A stretch of 64,000 nt of DNA. It comes from an uncultured Acidobacteriaceae bacterium. Lineage in GTDB: Bacteria > Acidobacteriota > Terriglobia > Bryobacterales > Bryobacteraceae. Below are positions 49,201 through 63,591 of this stretch, piece after piece. The notes below the pieces were generated by a model. It had not been told where the DNA came from. It saw only the letters and a list, made by a program, of their open reading frames with translations, and did not search any database. Position numbers and translations under genes: made by a program. The first letter of the stretch is position 1. Every line of letters starts with the position of its first letter. The stretch is from contig CAVROY010000004.1 in the NCBI GenBank assembly GCA_963722935.1, positions 1,147,495-1,211,494 on the forward strand. Direction: 5' to 3'.

Positions 49201-49593
49201 TCAGGCTGTTACCGTCGCAAAATCCGCGATCTTGGCGTGCCGCCACAGGCGCTCCAGATCGTAGTAGGCGCGTGCAGTTTCCGAGAACACGTGCACGATG
49301 AAATCGCCGTAATCCATCAGAATCCATTCGGCCGTGTCATATCCCTCAATGCTGATGGGCAGTTCGCCTATGGCTTTTAGCTGTTTTTCGATTTCGTCCG
49401 ACACGGCATGGCCCTGGCGCGGATTCGCGACCGAACAGATCACGAAAAAATCGGTAAACGAAGTAGCTTCCCGCAAGTCCAGAACGCGTAAATCCGTGGC
49501 TTTCTTGGATTCCGCGGCATTGGCAGCCGCCAGCCAACTCCGGATTTCGGGAGGCGTAACGGCGGATTCGCGATGAACAGAACGGCGTGTCAG
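49201..49593 (-). CDS. rsfS: ribosome silencing factor RsfS (start codon uncertain)
   Basis: DFFVICSVANPRQGHAVSDEI...EWILMDYGDFIVHVFSETARAYYDLERLW is the RsfS core. Homology clearly continues upstream of the ORF-track TTG at 49476 (PPEIRSWLAAANAAESKKATDLRVLDL). No in-frame ATG, GTG or TTG exists before the stop at about 49640. CTG at 49593 is the only near-cognate candidate. Confidence 0.75.
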   Translation of the reverse strand: MTRRSVHRESAVTPPEIRSWLAAANAAESKKATDLRVLDLREATSFTDFFVICSVANPRQGHAVSDEIEKQLKAIGELPISIEGYDTAEWILMDYGDFIVHVFSETARAYYDLERLWRHAKIADFATVTA

Positions 49594-49709
49594 ACTGGTT
49601 GAAACGTGCTCCTGCGCCTAGCGTACTACAGAAACCGGCGCGTCGGCCAGAGCTTCTGAAAAGACCCCAGTTCGTATCTTTGCGGGAGGGCTCGTCGTCT
49701 AAACAGTGC

Positions 49710-50600
49710 ATGGCTGGCCGATCGAAATGGCAGGGCGGTAGATTTTGCGCCTGGCTTCTCTGCAGCCTTGCTGCGGTGCCCTGGTTGTGCGCCGCAACCG
49801 ATACAGCGGCCGCAAGATATGACGCGCTGGCCAACACACTGCTGGAGCGTGCACAGAGCGAAGTAACCCGTATTCAGGCGCTAGTCGAACAAGGGACTCT
49901 GCCCAAGAGCCAGCTCGAAGAAGCGAAGTTGCGGCTGGCTGATGCCGAAGACGAAGCCACTCTGGCGCGAACGCTTTACGGACCCGTCCGGCTGCAGGAT
50001 ATGGCCCCGGAGGACGTGAAATCGATGGTCGAGGCGGCGCAGAGGCGAGTGGACCGGCAAGCAAAAATCGTTCAAGATCGTCGTGTACTGCTGGATTCCG
50101 GAATCCTGGCCAAATCGGAATTCAATGCGTTTCAGGACGAGCTGGATTCTCGAAGGCGCGTTCTGGAGCTGGCGCAGAATCGCTTGACGCTCCTCGAGGA
50201 GCTTCGGCAAATGGCGGCCATGGAGCAGCGTCTCACACAGGCGGCGCAGATGGATGCGGCCGAATTGAAGAACCTAATGATCCGATACGACGGCAATGGC
50301 TTATTCGATCTGAAGGAACTCCCGACTATCTCCGCCGACTTCGAAAAGCACTTTCATCACGCGTTGCCGATCAGCGCGCTAGGTCAGACGCAGGTGCACA
50401 CATCCATGGGTCTGGACCACCGGAATCGCGTGGATGTGGCGCTGAATCCCGATCAGCCGGAGGGTATCTGGTTGCGCCAATTGCTTGAAAAGTTGCGAGT
50501 CCCCTATCTGGCATTCCGCAGCGCGATCGCAGGAGCGGCCACGGCCCCTCACATACACATCGGAACGGGCAGCAGCAGGTTAAAGCTGGCGGCGAGATAA
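49710..50600 (+). CDS. secreted coiled-coil protein with a C-terminal His/Asp-rich globular domain (hypothetical)
   Basis: ATG 49710 gives MAGRSKWQGGRFCAWLLCSLAAVPWLCAA, which is signal-like. About 190 aa of heptad-like Leu/Glu/Arg/Gln sequence follow. Then comes VHTSMGLDHRNRVDVAL...APHIHIG. Confidence 0.5.
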   Translation: MAGRSKWQGGRFCAWLLCSLAAVPWLCAATDTAAARYDALANTLLERAQSEVTRIQALVEQGTLPKSQLEEAKLRLADAEDEATLARTLYGPVRLQDMAPEDVKSMVEAAQRRVDRQAKIVQDRRVLLDSGILAKSEFNAFQDELDSRRRVLELAQNRLTLLEELRQMAAMEQRLTQAAQMDAAELKNLMIRYDGNGLFDLKELPTISADFEKHFHHALPISALGQTQVHTSMGLDHRNRVDVALNPDQPEGIWLRQLLEKLRVPYLAFRSAIAGAATAPHIHIGTGSSRLKLAAR

Positions 50601-50613
50601 GCTCGCTCCTCGC

Positions 50614-51168
50614 GTGCGGAGGTTCGCTACCATTGCAGCAATGTCCGCTGCCCAAGAACGCGTTCTACTCTCTACCACGCAGATCCAGCAGCGCGTTCGA
50701 GAGCTCGCGCAGCAGATAGAGGCAGATTATCCGAACGGCCCGATCTATCTCGTCTCGGTTCTGAAGGGCGCCTTCATGTTTGTGGCCGACTTGGCCCGAG
50801 CCATTCAGCGTCCTTCCGTGCGCATCGAGTTCATGGGGATTTCAAGTTACGGCGCCGAGAAGACAAGTTCCGGCCAGGTGAAGGTCACGCGCGATCTCGA
50901 CGTCAATATCGAGGGCCAGCACGTATTGATCGTGGAAGACATCATCGACAGCGGCGTAACGCTAAGTTATCTCGCCAGACTCTTGCAACAGCGCAGGCCG
51001 AAATCTCTCGAAATCGTGACGCTGCTCGATAAACCGGAGCGCCGCGTTCGACCCGTGACCGTGAAGTATGTTGGATTTCAAATCCCAGACGAATTTGTTG
51101 TTGGGTACGGTCTGGATTATGCGGAAGATTATCGCAACCTGAGCGATATTCGCGTACTCAGCGCATGA
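50614..51168 (+). CDS. hpt: hypoxanthine phosphoribosyltransferase
   Basis: The PRPP-binding loop is VLIVEDIIDSGVTLSYL. LVSVLKGAFMFVADL and VVGYGLDYAEDYRNL are also present. An alternative ATG lies at 50641. Confidence 0.9.
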   Translation: MRRFATIAAMSAAQERVLLSTTQIQQRVRELAQQIEADYPNGPIYLVSVLKGAFMFVADLARAIQRPSVRIEFMGISSYGAEKTSSGQVKVTRDLDVNIEGQHVLIVEDIIDSGVTLSYLARLLQQRRPKSLEIVTLLDKPERRVRPVTVKYVGFQIPDEFVVGYGLDYAEDYRNLSDIRVLSA

Positions 51169-51955
51169 CGAGGGCCGATGGAGCCTTCATGCTTCGCACT
51201 GGCGAGTAAAGAACCTCGAGCACATCACGCACGTACTGTTCCGAACTGAGCTGATCGATGGAGTCTGCAGGAAACTCGACCAGCGAATGAAAATAGGAAG
51301 CGAGTTCATTGAACAGCAGCACCCGTGCGCGATCTTCAAGACGGTCACGACTCAGCAGCGCATCGAGCGCGAGTGCGGCGGCAGGTGCAGGAACGCGCTG
51401 CCGGAGCCGCGCGCATAGAAGTTGGTGGTCGAGAAGGGAATTGTAGCGGCTTTTGCCCAGAGCATCGATATTCATTCTGGTCGCGCCCCGCATTCGGACC
51501 ACGATGGTGCCCGCCGCTAAATCGCCTAGCCTCTGAAGCCGGCGATTCGAGAGCATAGTGATTGCTCCGACGAGGCCGAAGATAGGGAGCAAGTCGAAGG
51601 CGCGAATCAGATTACGAACGGCGACCTGGTAGAACCGCAGCTCTAAGCCGGCCATATCCATGACGCGGAGTCCAAACAGCCATTTGCCGATCGTCTGGCC
51701 GCTCCAGTAGTACTCGCAAATCATTCCGTAGAGCAGCCAGGCAGCGAGGTAGAAGACGATCAGAATTCCGGCGCCGAGATCCTGCTGAATGAACCGGATA
51801 ACGGTACTGATTTGTTCAAAGGCCGTGGCGAGAGCGGAAATCACGCATACGTCAATCAGGAAGGCCAGACAGCGGGTCACCGGTCCGCCAAGCGGCAGGG
51901 CGAAGGTCACGCCTTCGGGGAGCCGGATTTCGAGCTTCTGACGGTCTCGAATCAT
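51158..51955 (-). CDS. RDD-family membrane protein
   Basis: RCLAFLIDVCVI..., GQTIGKWLFGLRVMD and RLGDLAAGTIVV form the RDD-domain pattern. This is the last gene of the 12-gene array. Confidence 0.75.
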   Translation of the reverse strand: MIRDRQKLEIRLPEGVTFALPLGGPVTRCLAFLIDVCVISALATAFEQISTVIRFIQQDLGAGILIVFYLAAWLLYGMICEYYWSGQTIGKWLFGLRVMDMAGLELRFYQVAVRNLIRAFDLLPIFGLVGAITMLSNRRLQRLGDLAAGTIVVRMRGATRMNIDALGKSRYNSLLDHQLLCARLRQRVPAPAAALALDALLSRDRLEDRARVLLFNELASYFHSLVEFPADSIDQLSSEQYVRDVLEVLYSPVRSMKAPSALVMR

Positions 51956-51956
51956 C

Positions 51957-52955
51957 TCAACGGTTCAGTTTCGTCGCGTGTCGGCCGGCTCGGGCGAAGA
52001 ACCATCCCAGGAGCAGCAACTCCACGAATCCGAAGATAATTTTGAAGGCGTATGGCAGCACAGGCTCGTGGTACTGCGAGATACACGCTTCGATCAATCC
52101 GGCCCAAACGAGCATCAACGCGGCTCCCATGCTCAGGTGAAACACGTCCGGAGCGGCGGCGCGCAGACGCTCGGATTGGGGAGAACGCGTTCGCGAGCCG
52201 ATGAGCGCGCTCGCCAGCAGGAGTCCGGCTTGGCTCGCCACAAGCAATGCCGGTATTTCAAATGCGCCGTGGGGCAGAAGCCAGCCGACCAGGAATTTGG
52301 TTTGCCCGGCATGGACGTAATCGGCGCAGACGGCGCCAAGATCCACGCCGTTGGTGAACAACAATAAGATCGTGCCGACACCGAAGCTCATGCCTGCCGC
52401 CATCGAAAAAAAGGCAACGCTGATGTTGTGCGTCATCAAAGAAGCCGAAAACGCGATCTGATGGCCGGTGATGTATTTCCCGCGGTCCTTTTCCTCCTGC
52501 TTTACGCGCTCGGCGGGATCGTTCATCAGATGAGGGAAGGGCATCAGAACCGATTTTGCTTCGCGATCGATATTCATGAGGGCCACACCCGTGGCGCAGC
52601 CAACGGACATCAGAGCGGTTGCGAGTGCAAATGCGCGCCAGCGGCGGCGAAAGACGATCGGCAAGGTGCGCGTGAGCCACTCGAATGGTTTGAACGAGCG
52701 GCGTCTGCGAAAAGAGTGAATCTGCGCGTAGGCGCGTGCAACCAGCGCTTCGAGAAAGGCCGACAGCTCGGGCTGCGATGTCTCCTGTAAACGAGCGAGG
52801 GCCGCGGCACAGTGTTGATAAAGATCGAAGAGCCGCACAGATTCCTCGAGCGACGGGCGATGGAAACGGTCCCTCTCGAAGGGAAGCAGCATACGTTCGA
52901 GCTCTTCCCATTTAGGACGCTCGCGAGCGACGAAACGCTCAAGGTCCAGAATCAT
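51957..52955 (-). CDS. SpoIIM-like (DUF95) membrane protein
   Basis: The ATG at 52955 gives MILDLERFVARERPKWEELE. ...THNISVAFFSMAAGMSFGVGTILLLFTNGVDLGAV...LLPHGAFEIPALLVASQAG is the DUF95/SpoIIM signature. The longer ORF-track version runs into the upstream gene. Confidence 0.75.
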   Translation of the reverse strand: MILDLERFVARERPKWEELERMLLPFERDRFHRPSLEESVRLFDLYQHCAAALARLQETSQPELSAFLEALVARAYAQIHSFRRRRSFKPFEWLTRTLPIVFRRRWRAFALATALMSVGCATGVALMNIDREAKSVLMPFPHLMNDPAERVKQEEKDRGKYITGHQIAFSASLMTHNISVAFFSMAAGMSFGVGTILLLFTNGVDLGAVCADYVHAGQTKFLVGWLLPHGAFEIPALLVASQAGLLLASALIGSRTRSPQSERLRAAAPDVFHLSMGAALMLVWAGLIEACISQYHEPVLPYAFKIIFGFVELLLLGWFFARAGRHATKLNR

Positions 52956-52974
52956 CGCGGCTTCAGCCTCCGGT

Positions 52975-54321
52975 TCAAAGCGCTTGTCTCGCTTTGATGT
53001 CCAGGTACTGGGTCGCGGCCACCAGGCCGAGCCGCCCTGGGGCCACGGTATGCATTCGAACACCGACCCTGGCGAGTTGCGCGCGCACTTCAGCCACTTT
53101 CTTCCAAAGCATGTGACCTGCGAGTTTACCGTAAATGTCATCGAGGTCGTCCACTTGCAAATCGGAGAACAGAGGTGCTGTGTGGGCGTCGGTCGGAGAA
53201 GCGACGACCAGTAGATGTTGGCGGACGAGCAAGCGGCTCGCCTCAAAAAAAAGGTCCGCAAGCTGCGGCTCGGCGAGAGAAGTGAAGAAAATTATCAGCG
53301 CCCGGTGTTTAACTCTGGTGCGCAGGGTCGTGCAGAGATCGTCGTAAGCGGGCGCTACCATGCGCGGACGCAAAGGATAGAGAACCCGGCGAAACAGTCG
53401 ATCGAAGTCTGCCGCGTGGCTCGCTTTGACGAAAGACTCCAACTTATTGCTGAAAGTAGCGAAGCCGAAGCGGTCGCCCGTTTCGCGAACGGCGAAGTGG
53501 AGCATGAGGGCGGAACGGATGTATTCGTCCAGAACGGTGGCTGTCTCGCCGTCTTTACGCAGAACCCGGCGGCCGGAGAGGCGCGAAAAATCGATGCATG
53601 CGTAGATGTCCTGAGTGCGCTCAATCTGGTATTCGCGAACGATCGGAGTGCGGCGTCGGGCGGTCGCTTTCCAGTCAATGTCGCCAAAATCGTCGCTTGG
53701 TATGTACTCCCGGAGCTGTTCGAACTCGCGGCCATGACCCTTGCGAGCGATGATGCGGTGACCCGCGCTTTGCTGTGAAGCCAGCAGCCGCGCGGCTTCT
53801 TTGTAGATTTGCCGTACGGGCGGTTCGACCAAAATCATCGATTGCGCGGGTATGGTGCGGCGCAGATGCCAAAGGCCAAGGCGGGATGGACCGCCGACAA
53901 ACGCCTGCGCAACAAAAAACCTTCCACGTTCCCGGCCAAGCAGGGACATTTCGCTCTGTAAACCTTGCCGCGCACCCGGCGAAGGCATGACGATGTCATC
54001 GCGAATGGCCTCGACATCGGGCGGCAGCGCGATTGCGACGCGGACGTGACGAGGCGCAGGCGAGGCGGAGGCGTCGCGATGAAGCTCAATTGCAAAAGTG
54101 GCCGCTTCGTTCACGGTTGCACGGATAGTTTCCGGCAGCACGAGCGAAAAACTGCTCAACCAGCGCTGGGAGAGGAGAAAATCGCAGACGCAAACCGCAC
54201 ACAGGGCCAGGGTGCACAGGGCCAGGTAGAGTTTTCCGCCCGGCAAAATCGCCGGCAGCAGGCAGGCCGGTAGGAAGACGAGACCGGTGAGCCAGAGCAG
54301 GCGGACAGACGGCGTGACCAT
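52975..54321 (-). CDS. DUF58 domain-containing protein
   Basis: It has two N-terminal TM helices. REYIPSDDFGDIDWKATARRRTPIVREYQIERTQDIY is the DUF58 hallmark. The gene is directly downstream of MoxR. Confidence 0.85.
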   Translation of the reverse strand: MVTPSVRLLWLTGLVFLPACLLPAILPGGKLYLALCTLALCAVCVCDFLLSQRWLSSFSLVLPETIRATVNEAATFAIELHRDASASPAPRHVRVAIALPPDVEAIRDDIVMPSPGARQGLQSEMSLLGRERGRFFVAQAFVGGPSRLGLWHLRRTIPAQSMILVEPPVRQIYKEAARLLASQQSAGHRIIARKGHGREFEQLREYIPSDDFGDIDWKATARRRTPIVREYQIERTQDIYACIDFSRLSGRRVLRKDGETATVLDEYIRSALMLHFAVRETGDRFGFATFSNKLESFVKASHAADFDRLFRRVLYPLRPRMVAPAYDDLCTTLRTRVKHRALIIFFTSLAEPQLADLFFEASRLLVRQHLLVVASPTDAHTAPLFSDLQVDDLDDIYGKLAGHMLWKKVAEVRAQLARVGVRMHTVAPGRLGLVAATQYLDIKARQAL

Positions 54322-54340
54322 TCGTCGAGCCTAGAATCGC

Positions 54341-55306
54341 TCAGCGCGGGACCGGCACGTCCGAGAGAAGCTGCTTCACGAGCTCCGTTGCCGTGGCGCC
54401 TTCCAGCTCGAATTCCGGCTTGAGAACGAGCCGATGTTCGAGCACCGGCGCAGCCAGCGAGCGGACATCGTCGGGCGTCACGAAGTCACGAGCTTCCAGC
54501 GCCGCGAAAGCGCGGCTCGCGAGCAAAAGCGCCTGCGTGGCCCGCGGTCCCGCGCCGGAAAGAATGCCTTCGTGCGTGCGGGTTCGACGAACCAGATCCA
54601 CCACGTAGGCGGTAAGTTCCTCTCGGACCGTCACGTGATTCAGGTCGCCCCGTAGGCGATCGATTTGATCGGGCTCGAGGACGATGGCAACTTCGCCTCG
54701 CTCCAGAACGGCTTCGGGTGACTCGCCCGCCAGCATGCGGTGAGCAAGTTCCAATTCGTCGTCACGTTCCGGCCAGCCGATCGCGATTTTCATAAGAAAA
54801 CGATCCTTCTGGGCTTCCGGGAGCGGGTAAGTGCCCTCGAATTCGATCGGGTTCTGCGTGGCGAAAACAGTAAAGGCGGAGGACAGTTGATGAGTCACCC
54901 CGTCGACGCTTACCGTTCGTTCCTGCATTGCCTGCAGCAAAGCGGCCTGCGTTTTCGCGGGTGCGCGATTAATCTCGTCGGCCAGCAGAAACGAAGTAAA
55001 GATGGGGCCGCGGCGAAATTCGAACACACCATCCCGCAGATTGAAAATACTTGTTCCCGTGATATCGGAAGGCATTAAGTCGGGTGTGAACTGAATGCGC
55101 TGGAAATCACAGCGCATGATTCGCGCCAGCGTTCTAACTAGCAATGTCTTGGCCAGACCCGGCACGCCTTCGACCAGCGCATGCTGGCCCGTGAGGATCG
55201 CAATGAGTGAGAAGCGAACAGCGTCGTCCTGGCCGATGATGACTTTGCCTACTTCTCTCTTAATGTCCGCAAGTGTGTCCTGCAGCGTAGCGGTCTCTGC
55301 GTTCAA
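54341..55306 (-). CDS. MoxR-family AAA+ ATPase
   Basis: Walker A is GVPGLAKT and Walker B is LLADEINRA. RIQFTPDLMPSDITG and PEAQKDRF are MoxR-specific motifs. Confidence 0.9.
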   Translation of the reverse strand: MNAETATLQDTLADIKREVGKVIIGQDDAVRFSLIAILTGQHALVEGVPGLAKTLLVRTLARIMRCDFQRIQFTPDLMPSDITGTSIFNLRDGVFEFRRGPIFTSFLLADEINRAPAKTQAALLQAMQERTVSVDGVTHQLSSAFTVFATQNPIEFEGTYPLPEAQKDRFLMKIAIGWPERDDELELAHRMLAGESPEAVLERGEVAIVLEPDQIDRLRGDLNHVTVREELTAYVVDLVRRTRTHEGILSGAGPRATQALLLASRAFAALEARDFVTPDDVRSLAAPVLEHRLVLKPEFELEGATATELVKQLLSDVPVPR

Positions 55307-55355
55307 AGATGGTGTACCTGGCCCGAATCTCTAGTTTATTGCGCGGTGAAACTTC

Positions 55356-56486
55356 TCATCCTCGATGCGTAGACTTTACGCGTTCCCCCATCCATCTGAA
55401 CTCATCGGGGGCACGCGCGGGCTCGATTACGGACAAACGGCTCAGGTCCTCAGTCGGCAGCGGATGCGTGAATCCTTGGGAGTACTTGCCGCTATGGTTC
55501 CATTCTTCGGCGCAGACGCGAAGGATGGATGTATTTGGGACACTTTGCATCAGGAGATTGGTCAGCGCGGAGTGGGCATCGCGACCGGCTACTGTCGTGC
55601 TGGGGCGACCCGGAAAGCGCGGCACGAAACTGATTGCGCTGTACCAGATGTAGAGGATAGCCAAAACAAGAAAGCCCAGCAGCGCCCATTCGAGGCCATG
55701 CTTCACAGCCAGGCCGGTTACCGTGCCACTATCTTCGAGACCAAGATGGCTCTCATCGAAGATCACCGGGCGCCGCGGGCCGGAAACCTGGGCGAGCAAT
55801 TGAGCATCGGGGTGAAGCAATAATGCCCGATTCGTAAAGTAACTTGCGTTCGAGATGAGCAGTATACTGCCTCGGCCGAAATCCCGCTCCAGTAACTGCG
55901 GGTGGCTGTCTCGAACCTCCAAAGGAACCCACTTATTATTCCAGGACGCGAACCAATATACAGCGCGAAAGAAGTTCAATTTCGTGAGGATCGTGCTGTC
56001 GGAGCTGTCGCGATGCAGTTCACTGAAGCCGAGCTCAACACCCCATCGGGTCTTCAGCGTGTTCTCGGGTACTGGCTGTTTGGATAGATCCCGCCTCCGG
56101 AGTTCGGTGTCAGACCTGGCCAGGATGCTGTAGGGATCGAATGCGATGAGGATGCGGCCTCCTTGTGTGGCCAGATCCTCGAGCTGTTTCAGATCTTTTG
56201 CATCCGAATAGCGAAAGCTCGTCAGCGATGTACCGGCGAAAAAGACGGTGGCTCGCGTGCCGGCGAGTTTGTGGAGCGGCAAGTAGTTACGTGAGGTCTG
56301 GTAACCAAGCGCGCGGAGAGCTTCGAAATATGCCTTAATACCGTCCGAACTGTTGTTCAGTGAAGAGTACGCGGGATAGTTATAAGTGCTCTCGGCGCGC
56401 CGCAGAACGGATCGTACGATAACGACAAAAAACGACAGAGCGAGCGCTAGAACCGCCGCTAACGTGAATCGCCGGCGCGTGTCCAT
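55356..56486 (-). CDS. DUF4350 domain-containing membrane-anchored protein
   Basis: The ATG at 56486 gives MDTRRRFTLAAVLALALSFFVVIV, an N-terminal anchor. GIKAYFEALRALGYQT......FFAGTS.....DAKDLKQLEDLATQGGRILIAFDP fits the DUF4350 pattern. A C-terminal TM helix is also present. Confidence 0.65.
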   Translation of the reverse strand: MDTRRRFTLAAVLALALSFFVVIVRSVLRRAESTYNYPAYSSLNNSSDGIKAYFEALRALGYQTSRNYLPLHKLAGTRATVFFAGTSLTSFRYSDAKDLKQLEDLATQGGRILIAFDPYSILARSDTELRRRDLSKQPVPENTLKTRWGVELGFSELHRDSSDSTILTKLNFFRAVYWFASWNNKWVPLEVRDSHPQLLERDFGRGSILLISNASYFTNRALLLHPDAQLLAQVSGPRRPVIFDESHLGLEDSGTVTGLAVKHGLEWALLGFLVLAILYIWYSAISFVPRFPGRPSTTVAGRDAHSALTNLLMQSVPNTSILRVCAEEWNHSGKYSQGFTHPLPTEDLSRLSVIEPARAPDEFRWMGERVKSTHRG

Positions 56487-56494
56487 GTAAGGTT

Positions 56495-57706
56495 TCAGGC
56501 CGAGGCCGCCTTCCATGGCTTCTTGCCTGTTCGTTTCAGATACAGGTGCGCTGTCACGAAGAGAGCCGAAATTGTGAATACCAGAAGAAGTATCTGCTGC
56601 CACCATGGCAGATTCGGGTCGGCATCCGTGCTCAGGGCATCGCCGCCAACGCAGCACAGTACGTGGACGCAGAAGACTTCTATAGAAGCTAAACCGAGTA
56701 TCGCCAGATAGGGAACAAACGGAAGCGCGGCTATACGCGATCCAAACCGCACGAGTACGATCGTCAGAGCCGCGAAGTTGATCAGACGCACGGGCGCAAG
56801 ATGCCATTTGTCGATCAGCCATCCATACGCGTTTGGATCCATCCAGTGATCCAGCGGGCAATAGCGGAGCACGAGACACACCGCGGCTATCACGATGCTG
56901 AGCTTCAGCAACCATCTAGGAATTCGTGTTTCCGAATCCTCTTGAGGGCTTGCACTTGCGCCGGAGAGACTGCCGGCATACAGGCTTCCGAGCGCAATAC
57001 CAACCATCCACAGAAACTGCCACGCATAACTGTCGAAAGCCCCGGTCGAGTTTTCCGGCACGGACAGTCCGAAGAAGTTCATGTGCTGGTGAATCCATGC
57101 TCGGAGCCCAAATTGTGCGGCCGCCCAAACGGCCAGGCTGGGATAGATCACATAGTCCCAACCCCAGCGGCCTGCGATCTCGCGTGCGAATGGAGTCAGA
57201 ATCATGAACACGATGTACATCGGCAGGATATCCAGGAGAGAAGGACGGTATTGCAGGAGCGCGCCTGCGATCACCGCGTTAGTTGGACGCTGCAGGTAGA
57301 ACGAGAGGAGATTTTGAAGAGCCAGCCGGTGGAAGGAAATGCCGAATTCCGCCACCAAGGTGAAGGCAATCGCGAGCAGCCCGCAGTGATACAAGTAGAT
57401 GCGCGCCGTTCTCTTCGCGAGATCGCGCAGGGTGGCGAGTTGGCCGGCTCTTTGTTCGATTCGATGCTCGAGTTGGCCCAGCATAAAGGCAGAAAGAAAG
57501 ATGAATCCTTCGGCGCCGGAAACGAACCCGAAGGTCTGATTTGAAATCAGGCTGGCCTTGGTGGGTAAGTGGGTGAGCGCCATCCAAAGCAGCAGGAATC
57601 CGCGAAGAATATCCAACTCGATAATGCGGCGGTGAGGCTTTTGCCCGGCGTCGACTTGGCCGTCGCTCGGACTTCCTGAAACCGGGATGGGTTGGGCAGA
57701 TGCCAT
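56495..57706 (-). CDS. OpgC / acyltransferase-3-like polytopic membrane protein
   Basis: RRIIELDILRGFLLLWMALTHLP is an N-terminal motif typical of OpgC/DUF1624/acyltransferase_3 proteins. About 10 hydrophobic helices are present. Confidence 0.5.
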   Translation of the reverse strand: MASAQPIPVSGSPSDGQVDAGQKPHRRIIELDILRGFLLLWMALTHLPTKASLISNQTFGFVSGAEGFIFLSAFMLGQLEHRIEQRAGQLATLRDLAKRTARIYLYHCGLLAIAFTLVAEFGISFHRLALQNLLSFYLQRPTNAVIAGALLQYRPSLLDILPMYIVFMILTPFAREIAGRWGWDYVIYPSLAVWAAAQFGLRAWIHQHMNFFGLSVPENSTGAFDSYAWQFLWMVGIALGSLYAGSLSGASASPQEDSETRIPRWLLKLSIVIAAVCLVLRYCPLDHWMDPNAYGWLIDKWHLAPVRLINFAALTIVLVRFGSRIAALPFVPYLAILGLASIEVFCVHVLCCVGGDALSTDADPNLPWWQQILLLVFTISALFVTAHLYLKRTGKKPWKAASA

Positions 57707-57762
57707 CGACTTACCTACAATCTAGGACAGTGGGCGCAACGCGGGAACACTCTTCGCCGTAC

Positions 57763-59379
57763 TTACAGAGATTCCCGCAAACGAGCGGAGTTGCGCAAAA
57801 ACCGATCGAGCATCTCTTCGCTGGCCGGATGCTCTCCGTACCAGCAACGCTCAAACATCTGAACGTTCCCACGAAACAACTCGATCGCGGTAGAACCGAA
57901 GCGCCTGGCCCGGCGTTGCAGCTCTCGCAAATAATCCAGATTGGATTTGCCTCGCGCGAGTGAAATCAAACCGCCGCGCCCCAGGGTCGCAAGATTCGAG
58001 AGATATAACGCGCGAAGGGCCAATCGGAAATCGCCGTTGGCCCGATAACGATCGGCTAAGCGCGCCCACTCGTCCTCGCTTTGGGCGGCCGCCTCTGACT
58101 GATCGGCAGGCAGACTAACCTGTGGAAGCGCGCCGGCCTGTACCACGGGAGCGCGATAGGGCGGCGCGCGGCGCCGCCAGCCAAATATCACGACAGCCAT
58201 TAACAACAGGGCCGAAAAGCAGCCAATCACGATCAATGCGTCGGCTTTCGATACGGTGTGCGGCTTCCGAGCTTCGGTATCTTCACCGTGCGAAAAGATC
58301 CTATGAATCCAGTTTTCGAAAGCCTGAATCGCGGAGCCCAGCTGATCCCACAGCTTACCGGCTTGATCGACAAGGGAATCCATAAACGCGTCGAAGGGAC
58401 CGGAGGCCTGTTTGCGGGATTCCACAACAGGAAGATCCCAGGAATTGCCAGGATCGTGGAACACCCGAGACACGGCTCTCTTCATCTGCTCCGGCGAAAC
58501 ACGGCCAGGCGCGGACGCCGGAGGCGCGTCAGCCGAAATCCGTGCGGGTACGCAAAATAATACAGCCATCAGGAGCGCGACGGCCGCGACACTGCGCACG
58601 GCATTTAGTTTCAGCTGCAGGTCTCCGCCCGATGTTTCCGATTCACGAGCGAATCTTCGCAGGATGCACGCTGCTTTCGCGATCGGATCAAGACTCAAGT
58701 AGCAAAGAATCAGCAATGCGGCGACGGAGGCTGGATTCAGTAGAATTTGCGGCGCGCGCGTGATCTTGGATTCAATGCCGGTGAACGTCTTCCACAACTC
58801 AGGGACAACGAAAAGCGTGATAAACAGATTGATGGCGAGCACGGCACGCATGAGAAAGACAATGACTACGATTGAAACGGCTTGGGCTTGCCGGTACACG
58901 GCATCGCGTACAGCTTCCGCAAAGAGAGTCTTCCTCGAACGGGTCTGGGGTCCTTCGGAGGCGAGCAAAGAATGCTGATAAAACATCGCTACAGCCGGAT
59001 AGGGGACGACCAGCGCCAAGGCGGCGGGCCAGCACAGCAGCTTCGTTCCTGCGAGAAGAGGCTGGGTCGCCAATGCCGCGTGGAACTGCACGCCCAGCGA
59101 GCTTTCCTGCTCTGTCAGAGTGCAGTACATCCGAGCACAAAAGATCGATTGGCAGATGTTCAGCCAGAGATATAGAAGAGCAAGAATCAGAGCGATCCGA
59201 ATAAGCCGGTCGGCCGCAAACGGGTTTTGGAGTATGTCGTTGATCTCATAAAGTAGCGTTCCGAAGAAAGGGACAACGCCGCTGAGGTATATGAACCAAG
59301 CCACTGGGTCCGCGCTCTTCACGAGAAGCAGCGCCTCTTCAAGAATTCGAATTGCGGAGGGGAACCCGGCTTCCTTCAT
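57763..59379 (-). CDS. polytopic membrane protein with a C-terminal DUF4129 domain
   Basis: The ATG at 59379 overlaps the upstream stop (ATGA at 59376-59379). The N-terminal half has multiple TM helices. The C-terminal region, WARLADRYRANGDFRLALRALYLSNLATLGRGGLISLARGKSNLDYLREL...FERCWYGEHPAS, matches the DUF4129 pattern. Confidence 0.65.
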   Translation of the reverse strand: MKEAGFPSAIRILEEALLLVKSADPVAWFIYLSGVVPFFGTLLYEINDILQNPFAADRLIRIALILALLYLWLNICQSIFCARMYCTLTEQESSLGVQFHAALATQPLLAGTKLLCWPAALALVVPYPAVAMFYQHSLLASEGPQTRSRKTLFAEAVRDAVYRQAQAVSIVVIVFLMRAVLAINLFITLFVVPELWKTFTGIESKITRAPQILLNPASVAALLILCYLSLDPIAKAACILRRFARESETSGGDLQLKLNAVRSVAAVALLMAVLFCVPARISADAPPASAPGRVSPEQMKRAVSRVFHDPGNSWDLPVVESRKQASGPFDAFMDSLVDQAGKLWDQLGSAIQAFENWIHRIFSHGEDTEARKPHTVSKADALIVIGCFSALLLMAVVIFGWRRRAPPYRAPVVQAGALPQVSLPADQSEAAAQSEDEWARLADRYRANGDFRLALRALYLSNLATLGRGGLISLARGKSNLDYLRELQRRARRFGSTAIELFRGNVQMFERCWYGEHPASEEMLDRFLRNSARLRESL

Positions 59380-59702
59380 GTGACCTTTTGCGCAGCGAGC
59401 GAACCTGTCTCCGCGATGGGCACACGATCGCGAAACGCGAGAATCGTCCAGCCCGCAAGGTAGATCAATAACCAGGCGATCAGCAATCCGCACACTGCTA
59501 AAACGATTCCCCCTGAACCAATCCGGACTTCAGGCGCGAGTGCCTCTTGGCCGGAGTTTTGGGCGAGGCAAGCCGCGCACAGCATGCGCGATTCGAACAA
59601 CACGACGCATTCGCGGCAGAAGAAGTTTCCGCAGGATAAGCAGCGGGAAACCGCCTCACGCGTCTCGTGGTGTAAACAACGTCTGGTCGCAAGCGTGGAC
59701 AT
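59376..59702 (-). CDS. B-box-type zinc-finger protein with a C-terminal membrane anchor
   Basis: The eight-ligand module is C-x2-H-x8-C-x2-C-x4-C-x2-C-x9-C-x2-C (RCLHHETREAVSRCLSCGNFFCRECVVLFESRMLCAACL). It is followed by a hydrophobic helix (GGIVLAVCGLLIAWLLIYLAGWTIL). Confidence 0.6.
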   Translation of the reverse strand: MSTLATRRCLHHETREAVSRCLSCGNFFCRECVVLFESRMLCAACLAQNSGQEALAPEVRIGSGGIVLAVCGLLIAWLLIYLAGWTILAFRDRVPIAETGSLAAQKVT

Positions 59703-59717
59703 GCGTCTACCGGGATG

Positions 59718-60614
59718 TTAACTCAAACCGAGCAGGCTGGTGCTTCTGGTCTGGTGTTTCGATTGCTGCAGAGACCGGTGGTAAATAGCGGCGATTCCGA
59801 ATAGACTGAACAGGATGGTCAGGACGCTAAATTCCATGTTGAAGGGTAGCCGGCGCGCGCCAATGACTAGAAAGGGGAGTTGAAAATAGAGCAGCCAAAA
59901 GGAAATTTGAAGCAGGGCGAGGATCTGGCTCATCACGGCGGCGGCCCGAATGGCGAATGGGAATTCGAAATCCTGCTGCCGAAAGTAAAGCAAAACGAGA
60001 AGTCCGTAATAGGCGACCAAGATAACTTTCGTCAAAGGCGCCAGCAGACCCAAGGCAAAAGTGATGGCGTGCCAAACCAACACGGGCTCCTGAAGTGCCG
60101 CGCCGGCCTGATTTCCGAGAAACGCCGTCCCGGTGGTTTCGACAACTGACGAATCTGCGGGATATGGCAATTGCGTGGATTCAACGCGCCCCTTGAGTTC
60201 TTCGACTACGCGCCTTGATGAGGAGAGCGACGGCCGTAAGGGAAATCGATAGGCACTCAGCCGCGTAGATATCTCACAGGCCCAGTTCGGCCGCGTCAAA
60301 CGCCACAATCCGTACCAGGCAACAAACACACCGGCATAAATGGATCCCCAGAACGCACTCACCAATAACGGTGCGGAAACAGCGGCGGCGAGGACGCAGG
60401 CGATCTCAAAGGCGAGCATGAACCTGCGCGGGTGGTCGAGAGAATACAGCAGAATGGCCTGGACATCATTCCAATAGATTCTCGCGTAGATTTCGCGAAA
60501 CGCGCGGTCTTTAATAGCGAGCACGTGATCGCGCGCGAGCCACATTTTGCACCGGCCGCCCGGGAACGGGCGTTGGCCGCTGGCCGGCCGATAGACGGTA
60601 GTGGATTTCGCCAT
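59718..60614 (-). CDS. hypothetical polytopic membrane protein
   Basis: It is a 298-aa ORF with at least six hydrophobic segments. It is tightly packed between neighbours, with 8-nt and 15-nt gaps. No family is recognised. Confidence 0.5.
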   Translation of the reverse strand: MAKSTTVYRPASGQRPFPGGRCKMWLARDHVLAIKDRAFREIYARIYWNDVQAILLYSLDHPRRFMLAFEIACVLAAAVSAPLLVSAFWGSIYAGVFVAWYGLWRLTRPNWACEISTRLSAYRFPLRPSLSSSRRVVEELKGRVESTQLPYPADSSVVETTGTAFLGNQAGAALQEPVLVWHAITFALGLLAPLTKVILVAYYGLLVLLYFRQQDFEFPFAIRAAAVMSQILALLQISFWLLYFQLPFLVIGARRLPFNMEFSVLTILFSLFGIAAIYHRSLQQSKHQTRSTSLLGLS

Positions 60615-60622
60615 AGCGGCAC

Positions 60623-61246
60623 TCAGCGCGCCGGTCCTGGCGGGGCGAACACGGTGTTACGCCGGAAGGCCCAGACAAAGAAGACTGCCCAGCCTACGAT
60701 GGTTGCGAGTGAAAACATCAGCGCCAGAACAAAGCGAATCTTCGTGCGCGGCGCGATGCTGCACTCCTTGCGGAAAGTGAAAAGCGTGAACCCGAGTGCA
60801 ATGGGCGCCGTCAGAACACTGAAAAAACCAGTCAACACTCCGGCCGTGCTGATCGTCAGCGCCAGAGAATCGAAATGAAAGCGAGTCGACGCCAAAGTAT
60901 CGGCCCCCTCCCGCGTCCTCGCCGCTTCGAGACATGCGGCGCAAACATCTTCACCAGCCCAGTCGATGCGGCAGAGCGGGCAGAGGAATCTTCCGCAGCG
61001 TGTGCACGTAAACGCGGCCACTCGGCCCGCGTGGAAGTAGCACGTAGCTTCGGCACCGAGGGCGGCTTCGCCGATCGCAGCCTCGCGCGATTGGGTCATT
61101 GCGCGGCGTTGGAATGCGGGGAAAATTGTCAGCTCAATCCGCGACTCGCAATGCCGGCACTGAATGCCACCACCATTGAGCGACTCGTTTTCGATCAGGA
61201 ATCCACAGCTCGGACAGAGAAATGTGAGCGTCTCAAGATCGATCAT
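60623..61246 (-). CDS. zinc-ribbon plus B-box-type zinc-finger membrane protein
   Basis: The ATG at 61246 overlaps the upstream stop (ATGA at 61243-61246). The ribbon CPSCGFLIENESLNGGGIQCRHC is followed by CYFHAGRVAAFTCTRCGRFLCPLCRIDWAGEDVCAACL. The second module has the same C-x2-H-x8-C-x2-C-x4-C-x2-C-x9-C-x2-C spacing as the gene at 59376-59702. Two TM helices follow. Confidence 0.6.
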   Translation of the reverse strand: MIDLETLTFLCPSCGFLIENESLNGGGIQCRHCESRIELTIFPAFQRRAMTQSREAAIGEAALGAEATCYFHAGRVAAFTCTRCGRFLCPLCRIDWAGEDVCAACLEAARTREGADTLASTRFHFDSLALTISTAGVLTGFFSVLTAPIALGFTLFTFRKECSIAPRTKIRFVLALMFSLATIVGWAVFFVWAFRRNTVFAPPGPAR

Positions 61247-62025
61247 GCAGACTTGTACACGACGCGAGTGTCGCAGATATGATCGTGAAGAGCGCGCTTC
61301 TCTCCGTCGAAAGCCGCCATGATGTACCCGATCATCAAAGTAAAGCTGCTCACGATTGTTGCCAGATAACGGCCGCAACCTCTCGCGAAAGAGAGTCTGT
61401 CGCCATTGGAGCGCAACACACGCAGACCGCAGACCAGTTTCCCCGGCGTTCCACCCCGGCGCGATAAGAACCAGGCCTCGTACAGCATTGCCAATGTCCA
61501 GGAAAACAGACTGATGATGCCAAATCCGGCGAACAGCGGCGCAAAGGTCCGCAGATCTGCGGGATTCGGATTGCGTGTTTGCAGCAGCGGATTGATGATT
61601 AGCCCGAGTGCATAGCTCAGCGGCAGGAAGGCGACGTACAAAATGACACCATCGAGGACCTTCGCCAAGAAACGAATCCAAAAACCGCCGTAGCGCTGGA
61701 ATCTTTTTGGCGCAGCGGCTGCGGCGCCCTGTTCGCGCACCCGCTGGAAGAAGACGTCCTTGCATCCCGCACATACTCGCGCGGCTCCAAACGATATGAC
61801 GTCTTCAGGGGCAAATCGGCGCCCGCATTCCGTGCAGAACGCCTCGTCGGACGTTTCGTTGCAAAGGAACGCCGGCTGGACAGCGCTGAGTGGTTGCCAT
61901 TCGGCCATGCCGGCCGTCCAAATCAATGTATCCGGCCGCACCTTCCCAGACGCGCAAACAGCCTGAAAATCGGACTCTTCAAAGGGCCCGGTACGCTGCC
62001 CGCCATCTACGTAGTACCACTGCAT
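61243..62025 (-). CDS. GYF_2 (DUF4339) - zinc ribbon - RDD domain fusion membrane protein
   Basis: The ATG at 62025 gives MQWYYVDGGQRTGPFEESDFQAVCASGKVRPDTLIWTAGMAEWQPL (GYF_2 pattern). Next is the ribbon CTECGRRFAPEDVISFGAARVCAGC. The RDD domain follows (FWIRFLAKVLDGVILYV...TPGKLVCGLRVL...ALHDHICDTRVV). Confidence 0.7.
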   Translation of the reverse strand: MQWYYVDGGQRTGPFEESDFQAVCASGKVRPDTLIWTAGMAEWQPLSAVQPAFLCNETSDEAFCTECGRRFAPEDVISFGAARVCAGCKDVFFQRVREQGAAAAAPKRFQRYGGFWIRFLAKVLDGVILYVAFLPLSYALGLIINPLLQTRNPNPADLRTFAPLFAGFGIISLFSWTLAMLYEAWFLSRRGGTPGKLVCGLRVLRSNGDRLSFARGCGRYLATIVSSFTLMIGYIMAAFDGEKRALHDHICDTRVVYKSA

Positions 62026-62074
62026 ACGATCCTGATCGGCTGAGGTATGGGGCTCTGAATAGTAAATGATGATC

Positions 62075-62305
62075 TCAGATCTTTGGCTGTGGCGGAGGTA
62101 AGTCACGCGCTTTGCAGTAGGAATTAAAGCCTTGGCGACCGTGAGAGCCGTCGCAGAAAGGCTTATTTTCGGCCATCCCGCAGCGGCACAGCGAGATCAC
62201 CGATCTACCGCCCAGCCCGTAAGAATTCCCCTCGGAATCCTGGATGATGAATTCACCTTCGATCCGGATGGGACCGTTGTTCACAATAGTGACTTTTACA
62301 GCCAT
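62075..62305 (-). CDS. CDGSH iron-sulfur domain-containing protein
   Basis: The ATG at 62305 gives MAVKVTIVNNGPIRIEG.... CRCGMAENKPFCDGSHG is the CDGSH 2Fe-2S motif. The longer ORF-track start at 62428 is unlikely. Confidence 0.8.
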   Translation of the reverse strand: MAVKVTIVNNGPIRIEGEFIIQDSEGNSYGLGGRSVISLCRCGMAENKPFCDGSHGRQGFNSYCKARDLPPPQPKI

Positions 62306-62406
62306 GCTGCACCGATGGTAACAGGCAGATTGAGGTCTCGATGTGGCTCGATTCGTGCCGCAAAAACCCGCCGTCTGCACAACGTGACGCCTCTGTTTCC
62401 TTATAA

Positions 62407-63591
62407 TTGTCATCGCGGGTATCGACATTGATCCAGTTCATCTACGAATCCGACAGAGAGCTATTCGAGCACGCGATAACCTTCGCTCAGAAACAGGTCA
62501 AACGCCTTACCGAAACCTACCCTGACCTCTATCCGATGTACACGGTAGCGGGCAAATGGAAGCACGAAGGTCCAGCCTGGACGCATTGGTGCGATGGATT
62601 CCTGCCAGGCATGATGTGGTTGTTCTACAAATACATCGGTCCCGATAAGCCGGACTCCAAGTTCTGGATGGAACAGGCGATTCGGTACAGTAAGCCGCTC
62701 GAATCGAGAAAAACGGATACCGATGTCCACGACCTCGGTTTCATTTTTTTCTCCACCTACTACCGTTGGTATCGCGCCACGCGAGATAACGCGATCCGCG
62801 ACGTGGTGATCCAGGCCGGAAGAACACTTGCCAAGCGATTTAACGAAACCGGCCACTATCTTCGTTCGTTTGTGGCTGAAGATTCCATCTTCATCGACAT
62901 CATGATGAACGTCGGGATTATTTTCTACGCTGCCCGCGAATCGAATGATAAACATCTGCGGGATCTCGCCGTGCGTCACTGCATGACGACGAGACGCTTT
63001 CTGGTGCGAGGCGACGGCTCAACCGCTCACGAGGGGATTTTCGACCTCGAAACGGGCGAGTTCCTTCGGCAGTCCACCCAGCAGGGATATCGCGGGGATT
63101 CCTGTTGGACACGCGGCCTGGCATGGGCACTGTACGGCTTTACGACCTCATACGAATACAGCCGCGACCCTCGTTTTCTGCAAACCGCCGAAGGATGCGC
63201 GGACTACTACATCACGCACACGCCTGGCGATGGCGTTCCCCCCTGGGATTACAATGCACCTCCCGAGAACCGGTCGCTTGTGGATACATCCGCGGCGGCG
63301 ATCACGGCGGCCGGAATGCTGCGCCTCTGCCGGCAGATCACCGATCCAATGAAAGGCCACTTCTACTGGTCCACCGCCATCCACATTCTGCGCAACCTCT
63401 GCTCGAAATACCTCGCCAGCGACGATCCTGCGTGGGAAGGCGTTTTGAAGGGCGGCGTTTATCACATCCACAAAGGCTTGGGAGTGGATGAATCGGTGAT
63501 GTGGGGCGAATACTTTTTTGTCGAGGCGCTCGAGGACGCGCTCAACATACTGAGGGCGCCAAACCGCTTCCCGACACGTTGGCTTCAATAA
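62407..63591 (+). CDS. GH88-family unsaturated glucuronyl hydrolase
   Basis: [43 protein letters not shown] and [25 protein letters not shown] match the GH88/GH105 (alpha/alpha)6 barrel. The start is uncertain: TTG at 62407 or TTG at 62428. Confidence 0.8.

Follow-up and report, generated by a model that had tools for sequence, protein, structure and literature searches.

Several MoxR-family ATPases are known to form hexamers that work with a vWA adaptor to remodel or mature a client complex, as in the RavA-ViaA, NorQ-NorD and CbbQ-CbbO pairs. Operons joining a MoxR gene to a DUF58 gene rank among the most widespread bacterial gene pairs lacking an understood function. MoxR-vWA pairs have been handled as a functional module in two studies (PMC5898192, PMC3495828), in the first of which the association of SpoIIM with MoxR and vWA proteins was also noted in silico (PMC5898192). 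In mycobacteria, the genes Rv3689-Rv3695 (MAB_0386c-0392c) carry the annotations of a six-family core composed of DUF4129, DUF4350, MoxR, DUF58, SpoIIM-like (DUF95) and RDD proteins, and according to the literature they are co-regulated in Mycobacterium chelonae. The array described here contains this core and lies on the minus strand at positions 51158-62305 of a 64,000-nt stretch of DNA from an uncultured Acidobacteriaceae bacterium (GenBank assembly GCA_963722935.1, contig CAVROY010000004.1, positions 1,147,495 to 1,211,494), which is referred to below as the window. An earlier reading of the window made from its letters alone (the sequence-only reading) had taken the core for a recurrent bacterial neighborhood with no assigned function, in agreement with its presence on the Rhizobium plasmid pRL11 and, in the literature, in mycobacteria. 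The window array is a distinct extended variant of this wider core, in which a long polytopic DUF4129 protein is always accompanied by four further membrane-tethered proteins.

In order of transcription, the array encodes a CDGSH iron-sulfur protein (gene 1), a GYF-RDD protein (gene 2), two proteins with B-box-like fingers (genes 3 and 5) on either side of a membrane protein without a Pfam family (gene 4), the polytopic DUF4129 protein (gene 6), an OpgC-like protein (gene 7), a DUF4350 protein (gene 8), a MoxR ATPase (gene 9), a DUF58 protein (gene 10), a SpoIIM-like protein (gene 11) and a second RDD protein (gene 12). All twelve open reading frames (ORFs) listed in the sequence-only reading were found at their predicted positions, and Pfam agrees with the domain assignments made there for CDGSH, GYF_2 plus RDD, DUF4129, OpgC_C, DUF4350, MoxR, DUF58, SpoIIM and RDD. 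The six core families are adjacent, co-directional and all above the Pfam gathering score in the window. NCBIfam supplies no family-level name for any component other than MoxR, and by Pfam and NCBIfam none of the twelve products contains a domain of the peptidase, nuclease, ABC or secretin type; no transporter ATPase domain was found among them either.

Conservation of the array was assessed from two independent anchors. In the first, an alignment of 21 homologs of gene 6 was used to collect loci together with their 10-kb flanks, each of 185,579 species being represented by a single genome; this yielded 102 confirmed stretches, of which 80 loci were kept. In the second, the B-box gene 5 was used to search metagenome contigs; at least 600 stretches matched, and 80 loci were retained. 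Genes were assigned in these loci by comparing the twelve window proteins with six-frame ORFs in phmmer, after which family hidden Markov models were applied in a single round. The completeness counts given here refer to loci with enough sequence on the side or sides concerned. The collinear, co-directional order 2-3-4-5-6-8-9-10-11-12 recurs in both anchor sets. With gene 6 as the anchor, genes 2-5 are all present upstream in 61 of 63 loci and genes 8-12 are all present downstream in 48 of 58, and the complete ten-gene array is found in 41 of the 52 loci with room on both sides. The corresponding figures for the gene 5 anchor are 29/29 upstream, 13/15 downstream and 11/12 complete, and all 80 retained metagenome loci have matching neighbors as far as their contigs extend. 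Recurrence of this order in 160 independent loci of several phyla puts the arrangement far beyond chance. The conserved system is therefore one of ten genes, not the twelve that had been proposed from the window, and its products are one soluble AAA+ ATPase and nine integral membrane proteins that are inherited together. The sequence-only reading had also joined the upstream six genes to the MoxR core; that linkage holds across phyla for genes 2-5, and the CDGSH and OpgC-like genes are confined to an Acidobacteriaceae-like clade. Genes 2-5 are bound to gene 6 more tightly (61/63) than is the MoxR half (48/58).

By record title, the 80 gene 6 loci comprise 24 Acidobacteriota, 26 Desulfobacterota ("delta"), 16 Verrucomicrobiota/Lentisphaerales and 3 Nitrospirota, with single loci from SAR324, Methylomirabilota, a gammaproteobacterium, an alphaproteobacterium and a Saccharimonadales-labeled bin, and 6 that are unclassified, so that the carriers span at least seven phylum-level groups. 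The gene 6 product itself has its closest relatives in metagenome-assembled genomes labeled Acidobacteriaceae/Terriglobia and "Bryobacteraceae". The Saccharimonadales-labeled locus (L036, DASRLE010000143.1) is a 5.3-kb contig carrying array genes 2-8; its assignment to Candidatus Saccharimonadales, of the Candidate Phyla Radiation, is probably a binning error, given the small size of the contig and the identity of the other carriers. The median span of the array is 9.8 kb, compared with ~9.5 kb of coding sequence in the ten genes of the window, and genes are therefore packed as tightly elsewhere as they are here; the prediction of a MoxR/DUF58-centered array is borne out in the sense that the array is a genuine recurrent, co-directional and tightly packed unit. 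No flanking gene family is common to several phyla and the flanks are lineage-specific, which sets the limits of the module at gene 2 and gene 12. The array had been described as bracketed by two RDD proteins, and this bracketing is conserved.

The motor of the array is encoded by gene 9 (54341-55306), a soluble MoxR AAA+ ATPase with a TTG start that scores 209.8 bits against AAA_3 (cut-off 27) and 75 bits against AAA_lid_2. Its Walker A (GVPGLAKT) and Walker B (LLADEINR) motifs are intact in the sequence, the structure nearest to the protein is 2R44 (E 7e-80), and it is a bona fide MoxR-proper ATPase. Gene 10 (52975-54321; Pfam DUF58, 51 bits) begins 19 nt downstream of the MoxR gene and its product is predicted to consist of an N-terminal transmembrane (TM) hairpin followed by a cytoplasmic vWA-like domain. 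The array had been said to lack the vWA partner typical of MoxR systems, but DUF58 is itself a vWA-type partner: 13 of 20 orthologs match Pfam VWA_2 (best E 9.4e-6), and residues resembling a metal ion-dependent adhesion site (MIDAS), D244, S246, S249, T347 and D/E351 (D-x-S-x-x-S...T...D), are conserved. Searches of PDB sequences found no solved homolog of DUF58 (single sequence and profile) or of DUF4350 (profile).

The remaining core proteins are embedded in the membrane. The gene 6 product (57763-59379) matches Pfam DUF4129 at 25.7 bits (cut-off 24.8) and is predicted to be all-helical and polytopic, with a ~100-aa extracytoplasmic loop, a final TM helix and a cytoplasmic C-terminal DUF4129 bundle; its AlphaFold2 (AF2) model has a predicted local distance difference test score (pLDDT) of 74.8. 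Foldseek returned no significant PDB fold match for the membrane part, and the DUF4129 bundle (residues ~435-537) resembles the HEPN folds 2hsb and 2q00 (template modeling score TMt ~0.6, E 0.2-1). A HEPN nuclease role for DUF4129 is unlikely, as the Rx4-6H motif is not conserved: R511 is present in 49 and H517 in 50 of 80 sequences, the window protein itself carrying R511-x5-H517. Gene 6 was also considered as a transglutaminase and rejected, there being no Transglut_core or TgpA_N match among 21 orthologs at E<=1 and no invariant Cys or His. The DUF4350 protein of gene 8 (55356-56486; 45.3 bits) is predicted to have a TM helix at residues 9-27, a ~230-aa extracytoplasmic domain, a second TM segment at ~259-288 and a conserved cytoplasmic tail, and it contains a conserved FDExHLG motif. 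By HHpred, the DUF4350 fold has been described as GldG-like and flavodoxin-like (Makarova et al., PMC5898192). Gene 11 (51957-52955; Pfam SpoIIM, 118 bits) encodes a polytopic protein with a predicted cytoplasmic helical N-terminal domain of ~100 aa and the conserved motifs LMTHN, PHGxxEIPA and SQYHEP; in one ortholog (locus L081) the N terminus matches PF28475. The last gene of the array, gene 12 (51158-51955; Pfam RDD, 71.6 bits), encodes an RDD protein with a conserved C-terminal domain of ~110 aa that is predicted to be cytoplasmic.

What distinguishes the extended variant from the core is the block of genes 2-5, and each of these genes contributes at least one small soluble module tethered to the membrane. 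Gene 2 (61243-62025) combines a GYF_2 domain (62 bits), a CxxC...CxxC zinc ribbon and a three-TM RDD body (85.9 bits); the zinc-ribbon Cys residues are conserved in 67-68 of 71 sequences, and the gene stands at the 5' end of the array in 61 of the 63 genome loci with room. The GYF domain matches the NCBIfam GltJ model at E 4.8e-6, but at 26 bits against a family cut-off of 450 this is a domain-level likeness only. GltJ of Myxococcus offers an experimental precedent for an adaptor of this kind: its membrane-tethered GYF domain binds a proline-rich stretch of AglZ, with the adjoining zinc ribbon serving as a switch (PMC11135422). Gene 3 (60623-61246) encodes an N-terminal zinc ribbon followed by a B-box-like finger with eight ligands and, at the C terminus, two TM helices. 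The gene 5 product (59376-59702, 108 aa) joins a B-box-like finger to one TM helix, beyond which a short tail is predicted to be extracytoplasmic. Both fingers fall below the zf-B_box gathering score of 24.1 (17.9 bits for gene 3, 19.0 bits for gene 5), and the ligand pattern C-x2-H-x8-C-x2-C-x4-C-x2-C-x9-C-x2-C has identical spacing in the two proteins and, across 70+ orthologs, is either invariant or conserved to more than 90%. In gene 3, the ligands C11/C14/C30/C33 and C69/H72/C81/C84/C89/C92/C102/C105 are each conserved in at least 90%, and in gene 5, C9, H12, C21, C24, C29, C32, C42 and C45 are invariant in 19 diverse orthologs. Gene 3 cross-matches gene 5 in homology searches, and the best PDB match of the gene 5 profile is MID1 B-box1 (E 0.015), with RING-like fingers next. 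Gene 5 lies directly upstream of gene 6 without exception, even in a minimal array (L083) reduced to the B-box-TM, DUF4129, DUF4350, MoxR and DUF58 genes. Burroughs 2011 reportedly linked prokaryotic B-boxes to membrane peptidases. By the account of that study given in PMC4506424, they have been assigned in silico to membrane-protein folding, stability and proteolysis.

No Pfam or NCBIfam family matches gene 4 (59718-60614), the Pfam bPH families included. Its N-terminal module of ~150 residues is conserved at Y8, D29-H30, E41, Y43, R45, D50, T117 and Q148, with H30, R45, D50, T117 and Q148 invariant. In the AF2 model, residues ~22-148 form four strands that are followed by a TM hairpin, two more strands and a helix, with a pLDDT of 70-80 locally and 56 overall, and nearly all of the top Foldseek matches are PH domains, including the bacterial 3dcx (probability <=0.99, weak E of 0.03-0.1). 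The module thus looks in this model like a PH-like fold interrupted by a TM hairpin. The alignment behind the model is shallow because word-indexed homolog searches returned just 4 and 8 proteins. The polytopic C-terminal half is variable, and is missing from a short form found in six loci (L011, L041, L050, L054, L067 and L081). Searched with a profile, 1.84 billion proteins yielded 2,535 gene 4 representatives at 50% identity, 1,903 of them at E<=1e-10, and gene 4 represents a large family without a Pfam model.

Departures from the ten-gene arrangement suggest that blocks 2-6, 7-8 and 9-12 are separable. The array ends after gene 6 in three loci (L015, L084, L095) and after gene 8 in three others (L004, L006, L055), and unrelated genes on the opposite strand follow in each case. 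In nine metagenome loci (L086, L091, L092, L097, L106, L110, L111, L120, L146), gene 2 is adjacent to the array but inverted and divergent from it. A core-only array is found on plasmid pRL11 of Rhizobium ruizarguesonis (L164, NZ_CP084698.1, 91673-98371), where DUF805, DUF4129, DUF4350, MoxR, DUF58, SpoIIM and RDD genes follow one another; the DUF4129 protein is short (251 aa), and GYF, B-box and gene-4-like genes are absent. The DUF805 membrane protein stands where the extended variant has genes 2-5, which suggests that the position upstream of the core is occupied by a swappable module. A search of DUF4350 against plasmids gave no match. One further locus (L141, 1349-~7000) has another MoxR-DUF58 pair on the upstream side of the array, oriented opposite to it.

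Two genes of the window array belong to a single lineage. The CDGSH gene (gene 1, 62075-62305, 76 aa; zf-CDGSH, 62.4 bits) is found upstream of gene 2 only in L001-L006, L008, L015 and L084 among the genome and metagenome loci, and the OpgC-like gene (gene 7, 56495-57706), which encodes a polytopic protein of an acyltransferase family (OpgC_C, 195.8 bits over 352 of 358 profile positions), is confined, among the gene 6 loci, to L001-L006 and L008, where it separates genes 6 and 8. Both are accessories of an Acidobacteriaceae-like clade and stand outside the conserved module. No opgGH-like genes were seen in the neighborhood of the OpgC-like gene in the window. The CDGSH protein matches the motif C-x-C-x2-(S/T)-x3-P-x-C-D-G-(S/A/T)-H with the sequence CRCGMAENKPFCDGSH, and its C-terminal tail follows the pattern LPPPxPKI (LPPPKPKI, with the variants LAPPKPKI and LDPPKPKI, in L001-L006, L008 and L015). 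It is far more conserved than the neighboring array proteins; at 90% identity its cluster has 147 members, compared with singletons for the other array proteins. Being encoded directly upstream, the proline-rich tail is a candidate ligand of the gene 2 GYF domain. Proline-rich windows that could act as a GYF ligand within the array are not enriched in any conserved component, only this clade-specific tail being of note. Metal- or redox-sensing inputs had been proposed for the array, but CDGSH is the only obviously redox component and is lineage-specific, so that such sensing is not a property of the conserved system. Judged by their ligand patterns, the zinc ribbons and B-box fingers more plausibly hold structural zinc in protein-binding modules.

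Within the window, the predicted junctions proved exact: ATGA overlaps join genes 2 and 3 (61243-61246) and genes 5 and 6 (59376-59379), the DUF95 and RDD genes are separated by 1 nt, and no gap exceeds 56 nt. For nine of the ten products compared, the starts chosen in the sequence-only reading agree with the annotation of the public genome, DUF4350 being the sole mismatch. Terminator-like hairpins are not enriched in the region: 11 were detected, against a shuffled expectation of 15.0 +/- 4.3, and all lie within coding sequence. Transcription as a single operon, as the sequence-only reading proposed, is plausible for the window; in some relatives the array is split or gene 2 is inverted. Upstream of the CDGSH start, a divergent intergenic region of 101 nt (62306-62406) separates the array from a GH88-like gene (62407-63591, +); from its position it would be the sole candidate site of a promoter serving all twelve genes, and a search within it for a sigma-70-like match found none. 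At the other end, the stop of gene 12 overlaps the 3' end of a convergent phosphoribosyltransferase gene (50614-51168, +) by 11 nt (51158-51168), which leaves no space for a terminator between the two. Farther out lie an ORF with just a weak match to outer-membrane efflux proteins (49587-50600, +) and an hrcA-like repressor gene (48038-49069, -). The flanking GH88-like, HrcA and phosphoribosyltransferase genes are syntenic within the Acidobacteriaceae-like clade, which indicates vertical inheritance and a stable chromosomal context, and in composition the array does not differ from the average of the window. These features, together with the lack of a PADLOC system match, argue against a mobile or defense island. 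Neither a tRNA gene nor an Rfam family at its gathering score was found anywhere in the 64-kb window (1-64000).

We suggest that the ten conserved products form one inner-membrane assembly or remodeling machine driven by the MoxR/vWA pair, a reading to which we assign a probability of roughly 0.45. A soluble MoxR hexamer would work with DUF58 as its membrane-anchored vWA-type co-chaperone, and by analogy with other MoxR-vWA pairs the energy of ATP hydrolysis would be spent on assembling, remodeling or dismantling protein complexes, and not on metabolite synthesis; the output would be chaperone-like and non-proteolytic. This motor may dock on a platform made of the gene 6 DUF4129 protein, DUF4350, the SpoIIM-like protein and the gene 12 RDD protein, which together with it would make up the constant core. 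Genes 2-5 would form a membrane-tethered extension whose soluble parts all face the cytoplasm, and their GYF, zinc-ribbon, B-box and PH-like modules may be the adaptors through which clients of MoxR/DUF58 are recruited or held. A cytoplasmic location fits nearly all the recognizable soluble modules of the array, which have no signal peptides and are Cys-rich zinc sites; besides the modules of genes 2-5, these include DUF4129, the vWA-like domain, the N-terminal domain of SpoIIM and the C-terminal domain of RDD. Substantial extracytoplasmic parts are predicted only for DUF4350 and for one loop of gene 6. The CDGSH protein and the OpgC-like acyltransferase would be accessories gained in one acidobacterial clade.

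Several points weigh against this model. The conserved polar intramembrane motifs of the SpoIIM and RDD proteins could indicate an enzymatic or transport activity, and the MIDAS spacing of DUF58 is non-canonical (DxSxxS), which makes metal-dependent binding of clients uncertain. The array breaks after gene 6 or gene 8, or has gene 2 inverted, in some genomes, so that the genes need not strictly be transcribed together and parts of the module may function on their own. The assignment of gene 4 as PH-like derives from a model of pLDDT 56 built from nine sequences, with Foldseek E-values of 0.03-0.1. Fusions between the ten families, which were sought as evidence of contact, were not found, and a literature search for an existing functional characterization of the gene set likewise found no experiment on the ten genes. 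Neither the ten-gene array nor the gene 4 family is described in the searchable literature; Burroughs et al. 2011 (Mol Biosyst 7:2261), which falls outside that scope, may depict a B-box/MoxR neighborhood. The ten-gene extended array thus appears to be new, with a prior in-silico description possible, and parts of the core neighborhood were already known in silico.

One alternative is that the array serves membrane-proximal triage or degradation, in which the fingers and the GYF domain would capture cytoplasmic tails, DUF58 would hold them, and MoxR would unfold or extract the captured protein for a peptidase acting in trans or residing unrecognized in the SpoIIM or RDD proteins. We regard this as unlikely, though it has precedents. 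In TgpA-type proteins, DUF4129 sits C-terminal to transglutaminase-like (TGL) domains, and the array might be a variant of the MoxR-vWA-TGL system of Zhang and Aravind. For the operon of that system, a role in membrane-proximal degradation was predicted (PMC3495828), and the intramembrane His/Glu/Asn motifs of SpoIIM are conserved. Against this stand the lack of a Pfam or NCBIfam peptidase domain in all twelve products and the lack of a Transglut_core match or invariant Cys/His in gene 6. To our knowledge, moreover, the characterized MoxR-family ATPases are chaperones or maturases and not protease unfoldases. An alternative that we rate lower is envelope secretion, surface assembly or glycan handling, with the GldG/GIFT-like domain of DUF4350 and the gene 6 loop acting outside the cytoplasm and MoxR/DUF58 powering or gating the process. 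DUF4350, MoxR and vWA have indeed been predicted to form a novel secretion or membrane-remodeling complex, and SpoIIM homologs to take part in membrane remodeling (Makarova et al., PMC5898192); the Mycobacterium tuberculosis SpoIIM-like protein Rv3694c and RDD protein Rv3695 co-purified with the divisome protein Rv0954 (PMC8093794). The insertion of the OpgC-like gene exactly between genes 6 and 8 also points toward the envelope, as the OpgC family is needed for periplasmic glucan succinylation, but it occurs in one clade only. Nearly all of the soluble mass is predicted to be cytoplasmic, except for DUF4350 and the single ~100-aa loop, and the array has no channel-forming, outer-membrane or secretin-like component, no cargo gene and no conserved flanks.

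Insertion of a metal cofactor, or redox or metal sensing with the fingers and CDGSH as sensors or donors, after the manner of NorQ-NorD, CoxD-CoxE and CbbQ-CbbO, is quite improbable. Several characterized MoxR-vWA pairs do act on metalloenzymes, the array has four Cys-rich zinc modules with a 2Fe-2S CDGSH in addition in the window, and the MIDAS-like residues of DUF58 are conserved; yet no metalloenzyme client is found in or beside the array in any phylum, CDGSH is limited to one clade, and the ligand patterns of the B-boxes and zinc ribbons are those of structural zinc sites. Still less credence is given to the view that genes 1-6, 7-8 and 9-12 are two or three independent operons brought together by chance in this lineage. 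The breaks after gene 6 or gene 8, the nine inversions of gene 2 and the core without genes 2-5 on pRL11 are what such a view would draw on, and they are outweighed by the same-strand order in 41/52 and 11/12 loci of distant phyla with almost no intergenic space, and by the presence of genes 2-5 with gene 6 wherever the contig allowed (61/63 and 29/29). A MoxR-vWA conflict or anti-phage system like those that Kaur et al. 2020 described is very improbable. Ternary conflict systems built on MoxR and vWA exist, some of them membrane-associated (PMC7159879), and gene 9 matches Pfam bpMoxR, but at 42.7 bits compared with 209.8 for AAA_3; the array has no beta-propeller, effector or variable component, PADLOC returned no system match and just a domain-level match to RDD, and the rigidly conserved content, the stable, housekeeping-like chromosomal context and the native composition are at odds with such a role.

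MoxR is a prokaryotic relative of midasin and dynein, and the set of modules found in genes 2-5 is typical of eukaryotic protein triage and trafficking. If the ten products do form a MoxR-driven remodeling machine, coupling of MoxR to tethered B-box, GYF, zinc-ribbon and PH-like adaptors might constitute a dedicated ATP-driven means of selecting, remodeling or extracting membrane proteins, distinct from FtsH, YidC and Sec. This more specific proposal we hold to be doubtful; were it true, the adaptor logic would be older than the eukaryotic use of these modules.

Compared with RavA-ViaA, NorQ-NorD and CbbQ-CbbO, two-gene units that are soluble or peripheral and whose clients are known, the window array has a membrane-anchored vWA protein and eight further co-inherited membrane proteins. 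The Bat or aerotolerance operons (Bacteroides batI/batII-BatA-E, Borrelia BB0170-0176, Francisella, Rhizobium RL3499-3502) share with it the succession of a MoxR-proper gene, a DUF58 gene and genes for membrane proteins. Mutants of Bat-type operons are affected in envelope integrity and stress tolerance. Those operons carry vWA-TM proteins (BatA/BatB), TPR proteins and BatD, whereas the membrane partners in the window are entirely different; identification of the array as a Bat operon was rejected, as Pfam gives no BatA, VWA-TM or TPR family match in the twelve products. The MoxR-vWA(DUF58)-YebA/TgpA operon, also predicted to be membrane-proximal (Zhang and Aravind 2012, PMC3495828), likewise places MoxR and DUF58 beside a polytopic protein, but that protein has a transglutaminase-like core, while gene 6 has neither the core nor a conserved Cys-His-Asp, and the window array adds seven further membrane proteins. 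The archaeal arCOG01314 neighborhood (Makarova et al. 2015, PMC5898192), itself a prediction only, shares the DUF4350, MoxR and vWA triad and the predominance of membrane or extracytoplasmic components; unlike the window, it has S-layer and Ig-like proteins, for which no Pfam match was found among the window products, and it is without DUF4129, SpoIIM, RDD, B-box and GYF. Myxococcus GltJ resembles gene 2 in its membrane-tethered GYF domain and cytosolic zinc ribbon, but belongs to the Agl-Glt gliding machinery and lacks the RDD body (PMC11135422).

The nearest relatives are the core-only arrays of pRL11 and of mycobacteria (Rv3689-Rv3695), which have the same six families, on pRL11 in an identical order from DUF4129 to RDD, and which, like the window array, have no assigned function. 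They differ from it in lacking the families of genes 2-5, in having a short DUF4129 protein (251 aa) without the long polytopic N-terminal body, and in carrying DUF805 or another membrane protein upstream. Against this background the ten-component variant is sharply bounded and is marked by its two B-boxes, GYF domain, two zinc ribbons and PH-like domain, and its gene content does not vary across Acidobacteriota, Desulfobacterota, Verrucomicrobiota and Nitrospirota, phyla that are abundant in soil and sediment. It offers a parts list for complex prediction, pull-downs and genetics and a natural test case for the roles of bacterial B-box and GYF domains, and could reveal the job of the core machinery in mycobacteria and rhizobia, where genetics is available. 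The finding would overturn nothing, but it sharpens a vague "MoxR neighborhood" into a defined, widespread and putative ten-component machine with testable modules.

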